A stretch of 64,000 nucleotides of DNA, taken from contig CAVVHO010000009.1 of the NCBI GenBank assembly GCA_963748035.1, forward strand, positions 30,949-94,948. Direction: 5' to 3'. Position 1 is the stretch's first letter. Each line of letters opens with the position of its first letter. A program made the translations under genes and the position numbers. The stretch comes from an uncultured Gemmatimonadales bacterium (GTDB taxonomy: Bacteria; Gemmatimonadota; Gemmatimonadetes; Gemmatimonadales; GWC2-71-9). This document shows, one piece after another, positions 2,593 through 54,072 of the stretch. The notes below the pieces were generated by a model. That model was not told the origin of the DNA. It saw nothing but the letters and a program-made list of their open reading frames with translations, and did not search any database.

Positions 2593-2704
2593 GCCATCAG
2601 CCGTCAGCCACCAGCCGTCCGAGGCTGATGGCGCGTGGAGCGAGTCGGGCGACGCCACCCGACCCCACGATGGAGCGCTGATGGCTGATGGCTGACGGCT
2701 GACG
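2593..2704. repeat. Heptamer-repeat hairpin E1, (GCCRTCA)n...(GCTGAYG)n
   Basis: About four GCCATCA/GCCGTCA-like units, spacer, then GCTGATG GCTGATG GCTGACG GCTGACG. Confidence 0.9.
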
Positions 2705-2715
2705 TTGAGGACAAC

Positions 2716-2868
2716 GTGCCACGCGAAAAAATCATCCTCGAATGCACCGAGTGCCGGGACCGCAACTATTTCACCGACAAGAACCGGCGGAAGCATCCGG
2801 AGCGGGTCGAGTGGAAGAAGTACTGCCCGCGGTGTAACCAGCACCGGACTCATAAGGAGTCGAAGTGA
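2716..2868 (+). CDS. rpmG: 50S ribosomal protein L33, zinc-binding form (missing from ORF track, 50 aa)
   Basis: Manual translation from [60 protein letters not shown] upstream. Confidence 0.96.
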
Positions 2869-3109
2869 GTACCCAGGTCGCCGCGCCAAGCAGCCGGCGG
2901 CGCCGCTTCGCTTCGCCGCCGCCTCGCTTGAGTTCCTGCGAGCGGTGCGGGGCGAACTCGGGAAGGTGACTTGGCCGACGAAGGACGAGCTGATCAAGGC
3001 GACCCGGATGATCGTGGTGCTGTCGATCATCCTCGGTGTGGCGATCGGGTGGATGGATCTGCTCCTAAACCTCGTCCTGGTGGACGGGGTGGCGGCCCTG
3101 ACGCGGTGA
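2865..3109 (+). CDS. secE: Preprotein translocase SecE (apparent 1-nt deletion near 2886-2889)
   Basis: [21 protein letters not shown] plus one TM helix, between rpmG and nusG; the overlapping GTG at 2865 is out of frame with the conserved part. Confidence 0.9.
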
Positions 3110-3660
3110 GCGACGCAACGGAATACCGCTGGTACGCAATCCAGACGACCGCGGGCCATGAGAACAAGGTCCGGTCCCTGATTGCGCAGCGGATCGCTCA
3201 GGACCCCCGGCCGGAGAGCCAGCGCCTGATCAAACAGGCCTTGGTGCCGGTACAGGAGGTCGTGGAGATCAAGGGCGGGAAGAAGGTGACGGTGGAGCGG
3301 AAGCTCTATCCCGGCTATGTCCTGGTCGAGATGGTGATGAACCAGGAAGCACTCCACGTCATCAACAGCATACAGGGCGTGATCAAGTTCGTGGGGGCGG
3401 GGAAGTTCCCGCAGCCGCTGCGGCAGGACGAAGTGAATCGCCTGCTGGGGATCGCCGAAGCGGTGGCGGAGTCCACCCCCAAGGAAGAGATCCCTTTCCT
3501 CATCGGCCAGGTCGTGGAGATCACCGAAGGACCGTTCTCGGACTTCAGTGGAACGGTGGAAGAGGTGATCGCGGACAAGGGCAAAGTGAAGGTCTCGGTC
3601 AGCCTGTTCGGTCGGCCGACATCGGTTGAGCTGGACTACTTGCAGCTCAGAGGACATTGA
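3106..3660 (+). CDS. nusG: Transcription antitermination factor NusG
   Basis: WYAIQT..GHENKV, LYPGYVLVEM, KOW motif GPFSDFSG, VSLFGRPT. Confidence 0.98.
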   Translation: MSDATEYRWYAIQTTAGHENKVRSLIAQRIAQDPRPESQRLIKQALVPVQEVVEIKGGKKVTVERKLYPGYVLVEMVMNQEALHVINSIQGVIKFVGAGKFPQPLRQDEVNRLLGIAEAVAESTPKEEIPFLIGQVVEITEGPFSDFSGTVEEVIADKGKVKVSVSLFGRPTSVELDYLQLRGH

Positions 3661-3718
3661 AGATTGCTGATTGCTGATTGACGAGTTGGTCGTCATCGTG
3701 AATCGACAATCATCGATC
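3656..3718. repeat. Heptamer-repeat hairpin E2, (GATTGCT)n...(AATCGAC)-like, degenerate
   Basis: GATTGCT GATTGCT GATTGAC followed by AATCGAC AATCATC GATC. Confidence 0.7.
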
Positions 3719-3739
3719 GGTCCCTCCGCCACCGCACGG

Positions 3740-51824: not shown

Positions 51825-51829
51825 GGCGG

Positions 51830-51863
51830 GGTACTTAGTACTGAGTACTAAGTACCGAGTACC
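51830..51863. repeat. Heptamer-repeat hairpin E12, GTACT-type units
   Basis: GGTACTTAGTACT-G-AGTACTAAGTACC perfect palindrome plus a trailing GAGTACC. Confidence 0.85.
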
Positions 51864-51990
51864 ATTCCCTCAGTTGGCGCTGGACCGTTCGCCGTATCCC
51901 CGGTCACCTTCGCCGAGCCGCCGCACCGAAACTTTCGCAGGGCATCAGCGTATCACCGGCAGCCCCATTCCTTTCTTCAGGAGTCCTCTG

Positions 51991-54012
51991 ATGCGCATGA
52001 CAGTCGTGGCCGGCGCCGCGTTGCTGGCGGCCTTGCCTCTGGCCGCGCAGCAGCCAGCTCAACTCGATACCACCGCTCTCACTACTGCCCAGCGCGCGGC
52101 TCTTCGGGTCGTGCGGGTCCAGTTCACGCCCGACGAAATCAGGATCACCGTCGGCGACACCGTGCAACTCACCGCCCTGGCGATTGACGCCGAAGGCAAG
52201 CCGGTGACGGGTGCGCGGGTGCTGTTTAACATCGCGGGAAAGCAGGGGGTGCTGGTCGGCGCCGACAAGCTTGCCGGCACCAAGCCAGGGGAGAGCGACA
52301 TTCGCGCCTTTGTCGTGAAGCCAGCTCTGCCGGGGACCCGTCCCATCCTGATCGCCGACACCGCCAGCCTCATCGTGAACGATCTACCGGTCACGAAGGT
52401 GGAGATCTCCCCACCCCAGGGCTCACTCTATGCCGGGACGACGTTGAGTTATGGTGCCCGCGCGGTGGTAAGGGACGGGCGAGAGAGTGAGGACGCGGAA
52501 CTGGTCTGGTCGACCAACCGGCCGCGGGTCGCGACGGTGGATCGGTTTGGCAACGTGACTGGCGTCGGGGTTGGCACTGCGGTCCTGAGCGTCAAGTCCG
52601 GTGCCGTCACCACGACTCGGACGCTCACGGTGGTGGCGAATCCGCTCGCCCAGCTCAGGATCACGAGCGGGACGGAGAAGACTCGTACCGGCGACGTGGT
52701 GCGCTTCAAGGTGGATGCGCTCAACGCTGCCGGGCGTCCTGTCGCTGGGGTTGTGCCAACCTGGACGGTGACCGGCATTCAGACCGGGGACGATCTCGGG
52801 GCAAGGATCTGGGCGGATGGGGTGTTTGTGGCGGAGCGACCGGGGCTCTACACCATCGTCGCGACCGTCGGGCAGCGCTCTGCGCGCACGACCATCAAGG
52901 CCGAGCCACGAGCCGTGGGCCGGCCCGTCAAGCTGGTAGGTCGTGGGTTGCAGACCGATCACTCGACGTCAGAGTTGCACGTGTGGACCGGGAAGGACGG
53001 TCGGGACTACGCCTATGTCGGGACGCATGCCGCCGGCGTGCGCCCGAACGTGACCGGCAATGTGGTCCTGGTTTATGACGTCACCGATCCGGCGAAACCC
53101 GCCTTGACCGATTCGATCATGGTCAACGCCCGGGTGATCAACGACGTGCTGGTGAACGATGCCGGCACGATCGGGGTCCTGACCCGCGAAGGTGCCGCCG
53201 ATCGGAAGAACGGACTCGTCGTGCTGGACGTATCCGACGCGGCGCATCCGAAAATCCTGTCCGAGTTCACCGACAGCCTGACTTCCGGCATACACAATAC
53301 CTGGTTCTACCAGAACGTGGTCTATGTGACCAACGACGGGACCGGCGCGATCAATATCATCGACATCAGCGACCCCAAGGCACCCAAGATGGCCGGTCGC
53401 TGGGAAACCGGCGACCCGAACAACCGCTACGTGCACGATGTGTGGGTGCACGACGGGATCATGTACCTCTCCTACTGGGATGATGGGGTGCAGATCCTGG
53501 ACGTTGGGGGGCTCAATCGCGGCGGAACAGCGGAGAAGCCGGCATTCGTCTCCAAGTTCGCCTACCCGATCGGCAATACGCACAACGTCTGGCGGGACCG
53601 CCAATATCTGTTCGTAGGCGATGAGATATTCGGGTGCCCGCAGTGCATCAACGGACCCCGCGGCTACGTCCACGTGGTTGACCTCACGGATATCGATCAC
53701 CCGCTCGAGGTGGGCAAGTACGAGGTGCCGGAGGCGGGGGCCCACAACATGTGGGCCGAGGATGGGAAGCTGTACATCGCCTACTACAATGGCGGGCTTC
53801 GAGTAGTCGACATCACTGGCGAGCTCCGCGGTGATCTGTACCGGCAGGGGCGGCAGATTGGCTACTTCCATACCGCCAATGACAAGGGCTACATACCCAA
53901 CGCCGCGATGGCCTGGGGGCCACAGCCCTTCAAGGGGAACATCTACGTGTCCGACATGAACAGCGGCCTATGGGTTGTGAAGCTGGACGAGAAGGGACCG
54001 TTGATTCCGTAG
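51991..54012 (+). CDS. Secreted Ig-like domain plus LVIVD-repeat beta-propeller protein
   Basis: Signal peptide, Big_2-like WSTNRPRVATVD, repeated GLVVLDVSD/INIIDISDP/GVQILDV/GLRVVDI blades. Confidence 0.85.
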   Translation: MRMTVVAGAALLAALPLAAQQPAQLDTTALTTAQRAALRVVRVQFTPDEIRITVGDTVQLTALAIDAEGKPVTGARVLFNIAGKQGVLVGADKLAGTKPGESDIRAFVVKPALPGTRPILIADTASLIVNDLPVTKVEISPPQGSLYAGTTLSYGARAVVRDGRESEDAELVWSTNRPRVATVDRFGNVTGVGVGTAVLSVKSGAVTTTRTLTVVANPLAQLRITSGTEKTRTGDVVRFKVDALNAAGRPVAGVVPTWTVTGIQTGDDLGARIWADGVFVAERPGLYTIVATVGQRSARTTIKAEPRAVGRPVKLVGRGLQTDHSTSELHVWTGKDGRDYAYVGTHAAGVRPNVTGNVVLVYDVTDPAKPALTDSIMVNARVINDVLVNDAGTIGVLTREGAADRKNGLVVLDVSDAAHPKILSEFTDSLTSGIHNTWFYQNVVYVTNDGTGAINIIDISDPKAPKMAGRWETGDPNNRYVHDVWVHDGIMYLSYWDDGVQILDVGGLNRGGTAEKPAFVSKFAYPIGNTHNVWRDRQYLFVGDEIFGCPQCINGPRGYVHVVDLTDIDHPLEVGKYEVPEAGAHNMWAEDGKLYIAYYNGGLRVVDITGELRGDLYRQGRQIGYFHTANDKGYIPNAAMAWGPQPFKGNIYVSDMNSGLWVVKLDEKGPLIP

Positions 54013-54017
54013 TTGTA

Positions 54018-54072
54018 GCCGTCCGCCATCAGCCGTCAGCCATTCGACTCTGACGGCTGACGGCTGATGGCC
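54018..54072. repeat. Heptamer-repeat hairpin E13, (GCCRTCA)n...(TGAYGGC)3
   Basis: GCCGTCC GCCATCA GCCGTCA GCC then TGACGGC TGACGGC TGATGGC. Confidence 0.92.

Follow-up and report, generated by a model that had tools for sequence, protein, structure and literature searches.

What are the thirteen short tandem-repeat arrays that lie between the genes of a 64,000-nucleotide (nt) stretch from an uncultured Gemmatimonadales bacterium (GenBank assembly GCA_963748035.1, contig CAVVHO010000009.1, positions 30,949 to 94,948; "the window" below denotes this whole stretch)? A first-pass annotation had proposed that these elements (E1 to E13, between window positions 2593 and 54072) represent an undescribed system, either a structure-defined RNA element or the empty remnants of a small mobile cassette. 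According to the analysis reported here, E1–E13 are gene-less copies of a genome-wide class of foldback elements, in which two arms of tandem 7- or 8-base units, the right one complementary to the left, flank a short core that is mostly unique, and the arm order is fixed for each unit family. Gene-carrying versions enclose a PF05635 gene, which encodes an Avd-like four-helix bundle. This class of element has already been described for bacteria, and the link to PF05635 is a new lead. We read the elements as selfish or neutral foldback elements acting at the DNA level, which combine the repeat class known from Xanthomonas (Rehm, 2015; PMC4692102) with the build of the intervening sequences of 23S rRNA genes, the PF05635 cassettes being their gene-carrying form; to this reading as a whole we give about half of our confidence.

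A Genome-Wide Class of Paired Arrays

In the window, Tandem Repeats Finder (TRF) recovered each of the thirteen annotated elements as an array of period 7 or 8. In the whole assembly (4.21 Mb, 10 contigs, 65% G+C) it yielded 1,257 period-7 and 774 period-8 rows, compared with 188 at period 6 and 228 at period 10, and merging left 1,207 period-7 and 735 period-8 arrays. These arrays are intergenic in 93% of cases, and 66 of 965 period-7 arrays fall into predicted coding sequence, as judged from gene calls by a crude script of our own that identified 3,586 genes (83% of the genome coding) and missed some small ones. A genome scan for paired period-7 arrays, suggested with the first-pass annotation, found a reverse-complement partner within 200 nt for 452 of 960 arrays, whereas the two controls, a direct copy and a shuffled unit, each gave 20 of 960, so that about half of the arrays belong to hairpins and half are lone arrays. 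Adjacent pairs are mostly inverted, both for period 7 (244 inverted vs. 10 direct) and for period 8 (89 vs. 12).

The units had been regarded as different from locus to locus, but each of them belongs to a family that is spread over the genome. Approximately 94 heptamer types occur, with 78–118 arrays in each of the top five families; AGGCGAC, for example, accounts for 118 arrays, the AGTGAGA type for 102, GAGTACC for 76, and ATCGGCT for 43. About 30 unit families are represented by at least three pairs, many of them not G-rich, and 8-mers exist in addition. With units such as AGTGAGA, GAGTACC, GATTGCT, and GCCGTCA, a G-rich, quadruplex-type GGGNATC unit is not the rule. Copy numbers range from 3 to 53 and the arrays are impure (83–92% matches); in the period-7 TRF rows with a score of 36 or more (n = 1,007), copy number has its mode at four (260 rows), followed by a long tail.

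Per kb of gap, 2.3 arrays are found between convergent, 1.26 between co-oriented, and 0.64 between divergent genes. The outer array ends lie at a median distance of 5 nt from stop codons (n = 387), and 98 arrays genome-wide overlap the stop codon or the last codons of a gene, which indicates that arrays can replace gene ends. In the mechanism that we propose, the elements would occupy the space from a stop codon to the next ribosome-binding site, and their arms would lengthen and shorten by slippage. Loci of the same family cluster, with 95 pairs within 2 kb vs. 34 expected, a number that was reached in none of 300 permutations. No transposase could be linked to the elements in anything examined.

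A Fixed Polarity of the Arms

Although an inverted pair is the same when read on either strand, a unit followed by its complement is a different object from a complement followed by its unit. Each unit family was assigned a 5'-arm and a 3'-arm label according to its majority orientation. The usual order of the family is kept in 329 of 332 same-family pairs and is unanimous in AGTGAGA (40/40), AGGCGAC (31/31), and GAGTACC (27/27); because the label is itself set by the family majority, the weight of the polarity rests on such large, unanimous families. Moreover, the labels could be tested on data outside their definition, namely on neighboring arrays of unlike families that are unable to pair, of which 73 converge and one diverges. 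Lone arrays of the 5' type are closer to the left gene (54 vs. 19) and those of the 3' type closer to the right gene (50 vs. 24), and up to approximately 27 nt past stop codons about 417 arrays are of the 5'-arm type, in the sense of the gene, and 21 of the 3'-arm type. Taken together, the convergence of unlike families, the placement at stop codons, and the side taken by lone arrays show that polarity is a property of the element, not of the hairpin or of transcription.

Nested elements are ordered as well, with AACGGGG-type arrays outside GAGTACC arrays in 14 cases and the reverse in none. An age gradient within them was considered and dropped, as the inner arrays do not surpass the outer ones in purity (31 vs. 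33). The largest non-pairing composite (C1:461648-462054) comprises approximately 24 GTACCGA units that are directly followed by approximately 30 TTCCCYG units, which are unlike arms that still converge. Simple composition rules for the 5'-arm strand (purine-rich, G-rich, GT-containing, or stop-containing), which were checked by eye on the unit list, each fail in at least two large families.

PF05635 Genes inside the Elements

Twelve genes in this genome belong to PF05635, the family of the 23S-rRNA intervening-sequence protein. The first-pass annotation had asked whether larger copies contain an open reading frame, for example a four-helix-bundle gene, and such copies exist: seven of the 12 PF05635 genes are bracketed by labeled converging arrays ("> gene <") vs. 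five of 3,582 other genes (Fisher test, 4e-16), and 88 other predicted genes have the normal "< gene >" layout. Compared with other genes, PF05635 genes are thereby enriched approximately 400-fold inside elements. The arrays that bracket the seven genes belong to GAGGAGT (three times), AGCGTTC, AGCCGTT, AACGGKGG, and ATTGCTR, families common to gene-less hairpins. An eighth PF05635 gene lies in unlabeled 8-mer arrays, a ninth in inverted 9-mers, and a tenth in a G+C-rich inverted repeat, so that between seven and ten of the 12 S23p/PF05635 open reading frames (ORFs) are enclosed by elements, none of them by the thirteen copies in the window. Among solved structures, that of XCC0516 from Xanthomonas campestris (2gsc, E = 1.4e-36) comes closest.

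The association extends beyond this genome. Five relatives contribute 16 PF05635 loci, of which 11 are bracketed; in one of these genomes the units that do so belong to its own dominant families. Among 80 loci of PF05635 homologs from many phyla, 77 could be evaluated; inverted tandem arrays bracket the gene in 37 of them (33 with period 7), an array on at least one side is present in 70, and direct arrays only were found in three. Related PF05635 proteins are accompanied by related units (Spearman 0.36, p 0.0012), also after three close paralogs had been collapsed (0.32, p 0.005). In addition, the 255-nt core C1:694240-694494 between converging arrays is a PF05635 remnant with 68% identity over 57 residues to the paralog at C5:250968, and it is possibly an intermediate between gene-carrying and gene-less elements. 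The gene-less hairpins would either descend from PF05635 cassettes or spread by the same process. Our literature search retrieved no report of a general link between PF05635 genes and heptamer arrays.

Other genes inside elements (CsbD-like, DUF190-like, superoxide dismutase, and LemA, all named from their translations) occur once each and were taken as chance. The small CsbD-like (C1:513238-513444) and DUF190-like (C8:60563-60898) genes each lie between converging same-family arrays, in the rare "> gene <" layout that is elsewhere characteristic of PF05635 genes.

Turnover among Relatives

Twelve relatives, from the same genus (~80% DNA identity) and two other families, were compared at the sites of the window elements, and occupied and empty sites, a comparison proposed with the first-pass annotation, could indeed be distinguished. 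The gap that holds E6 (rpsQ/rplN) measures 12–18 nt in seven of the 12 relatives and that of E7 (rplE/rpsN) 12–21 nt in five, which corresponds to a stop codon plus a ribosome-binding site. In the tuf/rpsJ gap the relatives have other hairpins or 8-mer arrays, and the secY/adk gap, the site of E8, is differently filled, with other repeat hairpins in five relatives whose units are AGTGAGA-like, GAGGAGT, or GTGATGA depending on the lineage. In 400-kb samples of three relatives, 27–51 period-7 rows were detected vs. approximately 120 per 400 kb here; the units of these relatives are different ones, but their arm order is likewise consistent. Exact (AGTGAGA)3 is present in 11 of 301 genomes of the phylum, all of one family, with 139 matches here and at most 19 elsewhere.

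Metagenome contigs from four DNA runs, at 88% likeness, offered few usable joints (E5 and E9) and two spanning contigs, one across E8 and another across E7. E5 is missing in such contigs, where position 25809 is joined to 25873 with three letters and 25805 to 25909 with 28, and most of E9 is bridged with eight letters; because the contigs are only 88% alike, these joints are weak evidence of turnover. Elements are gained and lost between close relatives.

Element Cores and the Case against Mobility

Several observations weigh against selfish or neutral foldback elements whose gene-carrying form is the PF05635 cassette. Firstly, 230 of 264 loops of at least 20 nt match no other loop, unlike ordinary miniature transposons. 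The 34 loops that fall into any similarity cluster include 20 copies of a 100-nt palindromic repeat and seven nested arrays, and a shared interior of the type found in miniature inverted-repeat transposable elements was not detected among the loops. Nor are the loops convincing as decayed units, since they share 4-mers with their own unit at 0.10 vs. 0.07 with other units, and 5-mers gave no significant difference. Secondly, no PF05635 gene or remnant is present in E1–E13, only one clear and one weak remnant were found among 269 cores of 45–330 nt, and the families AGGCGAC, GAGTACC, and ATCGGCT have no PF05635 partner in this genome. The comparison of PF05635 gene count with array density covers only six genomes, with 12 genes here and 2–5 in the others. 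Thirdly, same-family pairs 300–1,000 nt apart show the element orientation 15 times vs. 12, 18, and 11 times for the other three, and no target-site duplication was seen when E6 was compared by eye with the empty gaps of the relatives. Since the crude gene finder misses small genes, distances to start codons are rough. No enzymatic activity is known for the four-helix-bundle protein, neither the cutting nor the joining of DNA, and PF05635 is not known as a transposase family. PF05635 genes, the 100-nt palindromic repeat, and terminator-like stems may merely land in element centers or get trapped there. Of all these objections, the most serious are the unique loops, the lack of PF05635 remnants in the window copies, the three large families without a partner gene, and the lack of a known enzymatic activity.

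At distances of 300–8,000 nt, same-family pairs are not generally enriched for the element orientation. The existence of larger copies in general was therefore rejected, and only the PF05635 subset stands out. For the idea of empty mobile-cassette remnants the outcome is mixed: the bracketing of seven of 12 PF05635 genes and the one spacer with a gene remnant argue for it, but the missing pair excess at these distances and the unique loops argue against it.

The palindromic repeat is 90–110 nt long, has the ends GTCATCCCGAG...GGGATC / GATCCC...CTCGGGATGAC, and occurs in 40 genomic copies (e.g., C5:432169-432265), none of them in the window. For 38 of the copies a heptamer or octamer array is no more than 60 nt away, and the usual position is exactly in the middle of two converging arms. 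A similar motif was observed in the secY/adk gaps of relatives (L002, L023). A central hairpin as the general seed of the elements was also considered and rejected, as the folds of the loops have a mean z-score of −0.74, with 41 of 244 below −2, only slightly beyond shuffled sequences.

Alternative Explanations

In the best of the alternatives, which we regard as rather unlikely, the arrays are a mutational by-product that arises by replication slippage of 7–8 bases in place, with palindromes produced by fold-back copying and nothing mobile involved, and PF05635 genes, the 100-nt repeat, and terminators are merely central. The variable copy numbers and impurity of the arrays, the unique loops, and the lack of a linked transposase are all compatible with such an origin. 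Moreover, the order of variant units is mirrored between the arms better than with shuffled unit order (0.895 vs. 0.865; 114 vs. 64 loci), as fold-back copying would give, and the main text of Rehm (2015; PMC4692102) cites the idea that heptamers fit the contact of the polymerase with DNA. However, fold-back copying predicts both arm orders, whereas a single one prevails in nearly all same-family pairs and unlike families converge. A process acting in place is also difficult to reconcile with approximately 100 loci per unit and the local clustering of families, with the enrichment of PF05635 genes inside elements and a protein tree that tracks the unit sequence, and with relatives that are ~80% identical and have 3–4 times fewer arrays.

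The hairpins might instead be RNA elements under selection, i.e., RNase III sites or 3'-exonuclease barriers that set gene levels in operons such as the S10-spc cluster, which we consider improbable. The structure-defined RNA element of the first-pass annotation stands in so far as the stems (20–60 bp, with a mean fold of −76 kcal/mol) are long enough for RNase III and U tails are lacking. Of 664 hairpin sides, 20 lead into a T run and 644 do not, so that the hairpins do not qualify as intrinsic terminators; in the window, no T run follows E1–E9, and flanking A/T runs occur only at the inner stem of E11. Their position, exactly in the space that separates a stop codon from the following ribosome-binding site, would also suit such a role. 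RNase III cuts the comparable stem of an rRNA intervening sequence, as described in the relevant part of Warrier (2016; PMC4990558), and most Xanthomonas repeats are transcribed according to Rehm (2015; PMC4692102).

However, the fold itself bears no sign of selection at the RNA level. For 197 hairpins in co-oriented gaps, the fold energy is equal in sense and antisense (means −76.3 vs. −76.4 kcal/mol; 97 vs. 99 loci). Stem mismatches that are G-U on the sense strand do not exceed those that are G-U on the antisense strand only, which are A-C in sense (172 vs. 178). Lone arrays have no strand preference with respect to transcription (186 vs. 184). Furthermore, about half of the arrays are partnerless, non-pairing arrays of unlike families share the same layout, and the same gaps are empty in relatives and in contigs of close relatives. 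A search with Rfam 15 at gathering score assigned no family to any element and identified four tRNAs (2153–2582) as the only RNAs in the whole window. By analogy to the rRNA intervening sequences, long perfect stems in transcripts would probably be cut by RNase III, as a side effect rather than a selected function.

Break healing, in which arms are added to both 3' ends of a double-strand break in a gap (telomere-like or copied from other arrays), the ends are rejoined, and later breaks at the tip add inner pairs, would account for the 73-to-1 convergence of unlike families, the 14-to-0 nesting of AACGGGG outside GAGTACC, the replacement of last codons, and the unique junction loops, but is very improbable. 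Neither an enzyme nor a template was identified, the purity of inner arrays does not exceed that of outer ones, and intact terminator-like stems (E11) or a whole gene occupy some of the centers, which is unexpected at a junction; the PF05635 link is left unexplained as well.

Relation to Known Repeats

According to the main text of Rehm (2015; PMC4692102), X. campestris and X. axonopodis contain (GGGAATC)n arrays of 2–26 tandem units that are strongly intergenic and rare between divergent genes, with 70–75 cases per genome of two arrays that converge on opposite strands. These arrays lie "almost exclusively" nearer to the 5' neighboring ORF, whatever the orientation of that ORF. The same text covers the GGGGA(C/T)T repeats of Nostoc PCC 7120, where few arrays are paired, and reports that repeat length and sequence differ between close species, that function and origin are unknown, and that a heptanucleotide excess has been noted since a Calothrix report and a 2007 survey. 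The intergenic tandem 7-mers, the convergent pairs, the 5'-ORF position rule, the depletion in divergent gaps, and the turnover all hold in the genome analyzed here. In contrast, the class of Rehm (2015) is built on one G-rich, quadruplex-forming unit with a preference for four units, whereas about 30 families plus 8-mers occur here, at approximately five times the array density. The convergence of unlike families and the PF05635 link are found here and not in that study, the main text of which has no mention of S23, "intervening," or XCC0516.

The Coxiella 23S rRNA intervening sequence is described in the relevant part of Warrier (2016; PMC4990558) as a selfish element with a PF05635 gene and a 28-bp stem cut by RNase III, the stem region of which contains 2–3 tandem heptamers in strain-dependent number. 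The suggestion of an undescribed system thus had to be abandoned, as the architecture and position rule are in print for Xanthomonas (PMC4692102) and heptamers in a PF05635-carrying stem for Coxiella (PMC4990558), in both cases according to the parts of these papers just referred to. Like the S23p/PF05635 intervening sequences of Coxiella and Leptospira, the gene-carrying elements combine a small four-helix-bundle gene inside terminal inverted repeats with a long stem and heptamers, and terminal inverted repeats that form a long stem are also present in the folds of the window elements. Unlike those sequences, which reside within the 23S rRNA gene, the elements lie between protein genes; E1–E13 are all located between protein or tRNA genes and none inside a 23S rRNA gene. 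The thirteen copies are moreover gene-less, and arms in this genome reach 53 instead of 2–3 units. Gene-less hairpin versions of 23S rRNA intervening sequences exist in other bacteria.

The short tandemly repeated repetitive (STRR) sequences of heterocystous cyanobacteria such as Calothrix are said to be intergenic tandem heptanucleotides with several unit types per genome, features shared by the arrays described here. The hosts differ, as rpoC is split in cyanobacteria whereas it is one gene of 1,505 residues here, and the organism is not a cyanobacterium. Repetitive extragenic palindromic (REP) sequences and REPINs, the latter associated with the work of Bertels and Rainey in 2011, are reportedly abundant intergenic inverted hairpin doublets with a less conserved spacer for which selfish spread has been proposed. 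Their arms, however, are single conserved palindromic units of 20–40 nt moved by the RAYT transposase, and those of the elements are variable-length microsatellites. Drosophila foldback (FB) transposons have inverted arms of short tandem repeats that are unequal and variable, varied loops, and genes in only some copies. The elements resemble them in their tandem-repeat inverted arms of variable length, varied centers, and genes in some copies only, but FB elements are eukaryotic, have much longer arms, and encode a known transposase in gene-carrying copies. Finally, the TAACTGA repeat of marine Beggiatoaceae is an abundant intergenic tandem heptamer, for which the part of MacGregor (2015; PMC4679880) that deals with it lists 169 direct sets and one "indirect" set in one genome. 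Unlike the arrays here, it thus forms almost exclusively direct arrays and no hairpins.

Anatomy of the Thirteen Window Elements

Flanking ORFs were named by Pfam, and each element was folded as single-stranded RNA and compared to 200 dinucleotide shuffles, which gave the z-scores listed below along with minimum free energies (MFE; kcal/mol). The annotated pairing with a reverse-complement array was borne out by strong hairpins in 11 of the 13 elements (z −3.2 to −11.7) and by the unpaired state of E4, but is marginal in E2. The partner arms of E5, E7, and E8 are shorter and stay below the TRF score, yet are evident in sequence and folds.

E1 (2593–2702; MFE −65.4, z −4.8) lies between a tRNA gene (2510–2582) and an L33-like ORF (2717–2868; named from its translation, with no Pfam match at 1e-5). 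Its arms, GCCRYCA ×3.4 (2593–2619) and GCTGRYG ×3.7 (2677–2702), enclose a 57-nt loop with its own small stem. E2 (3656–3722; z −1.95), in the nusG/rplK gap, is a weak element that consists of GATTGCT ×2.7 (3662–3680) and an imperfect complementary stretch downstream; six of the 200 shuffles were equally stable. E3 (10483–10611; MFE −71.1, z −5.2) occupies the rpoB/rpoC gap with arms of 8-mers, GACGGTCS ×4.4 (10483–10516) and GACCGTCG ×3.9 (10581–10611). E4 (22127–22170), in the rpsG/fusA gap, is a lone array of TCCCCGT / TCCCCCGT ×5.6 with no fold (z +0.9), a partnerless 3'-arm type of the AACGGGG family.

E5 (25806–25876; MFE −53.4, z −10.9) fills the tuf/rpsJ gap between the stop codon of the former and the ribosome-binding site of the latter gene, with AGCCATCGGCCGTCAGCC as its left arm and GACGACT / GACGGCT ×6 (25835–25876) as its right arm. 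E6 (31022–31095; z −6.2) in the rpsQ/rplN gap has the arms CGCCRTC ×3.3 (31022–31044) and GACGGCG ×3.9 (31069–31095), and E7 (32566–32640; z −3.2) in the rplE/rpsN gap pairs AGTGAGA ×3.3 (32566–32591) with CTCACTTCTTACTTCT on the opposite side. The same unit forms the left arm of E8 in the secY/adk gap (36929–36993; MFE −38.3, z −7.0; AGTGAGA ×3.4, 36929–36952), and is followed by a loop with a small GTGGG/CCCAC stem and then by ACTTCTCACTTCT. E9 (38429–38615; MFE −85, z −7.3) had been placed inside an operon, but is situated between the convergent map gene (+) and a gene with an FTCD_C domain (−). Its arms are AGTGAGA ×6.3 (38429–38472) and CTCACYT ×14.9 (38515–38615). The TGA in the first AGTGAGA unit (38429–38433) serves as the stop codon of map, and the right arm (38604–38615) supplies the last codons of the FTCD_C gene on the minus strand.

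E10–E13 are flanked by housekeeping genes further along the window. E10 (44525–44634; z −3.8), between purA and a pyridine-nucleotide oxidoreductase gene, consists of GAGTACC ×4.1 (44532–44560) and GGTACYC (44599–44627). E11 (45624–45739; MFE −77.5, z −11.7) lies between convergent genes and has the arms GGCTATC ×4.4 (45624–45654) and AGCCGAT ×4.7 (45707–45739); in its center a G+C-rich stem between A- and T-runs (about 45665–45700) resembles a two-way terminator. E12 (51830–51862; z −4.0), which follows an aminoacyl-tRNA synthetase gene, had been described as an array plus a separate reverse-complement array, but is one self-complementary, self-folding array of GTACTNA ×4.6 with a GTAC core and a 3-nt loop. 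E13 (54017–54071; MFE −37.9, z −7.3), between a gene with LVIVD repeats and the next ORF, has the arms AGCCRTC ×3.6 (54017–54041) and CTGACGG ×3.1 (54050–54071).

Some of the neighboring genes have features of their own. Ribosomal protein L5 (31864–32565) carries an N-terminal extension of approximately 60 residues that is rich in Lys, Ala, and Pro (KAPKAPKAPK...), and its Pfam L5 domain starts at residue 71. Two further ORFs of the ribosomal cluster contain in-frame repeat tracts: 33- and 15-nt AAG/GCC-rich repeats (27563–27666) near the end of ORF 26821–27678, and 21-nt GGC-rich repeats (34260–34328) near the start of ORF 34179–34862. With 1,487 residues, the product of rpoB (6014–10477) is long for a bacterial beta subunit, and its Pfam domain-6 match in two stretches suggests a lineage-specific insertion.

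Implications

With approximately 1,900 arrays and 30 unit families, this genome is an extreme case of its kind, and it reveals a layout rule that is independent of hairpin formation and of the direction of transcription. Annotators should be aware of such hairpins, which have fold energies of −40 to −85 kcal/mol, are located between ribosomal protein genes, disrupt assemblies, and can take the place of last codons. PF05635, the gene family of the rRNA intervening sequences, is the one gene family found inside such elements, here as well as in 37 of 77 homologous loci from many phyla. For a repeat that had been unexplained, this provides a concrete hypothesis open to bench experiments. Taken further, PF05635 proteins might drive heptamer foldback elements across the Bacteria, each paralog recognizing its own 7–8-base unit and promoting the copying or insertion of a two-armed element, with the gene-less hairpins as non-autonomous offspring. 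We advance this extension tentatively and consider it unlikely; if true, it would explain the heptanucleotide excess of bacterial genomes, the STRR and the Xanthomonas GGGAATC repeats, and the origin of the rRNA intervening sequences.

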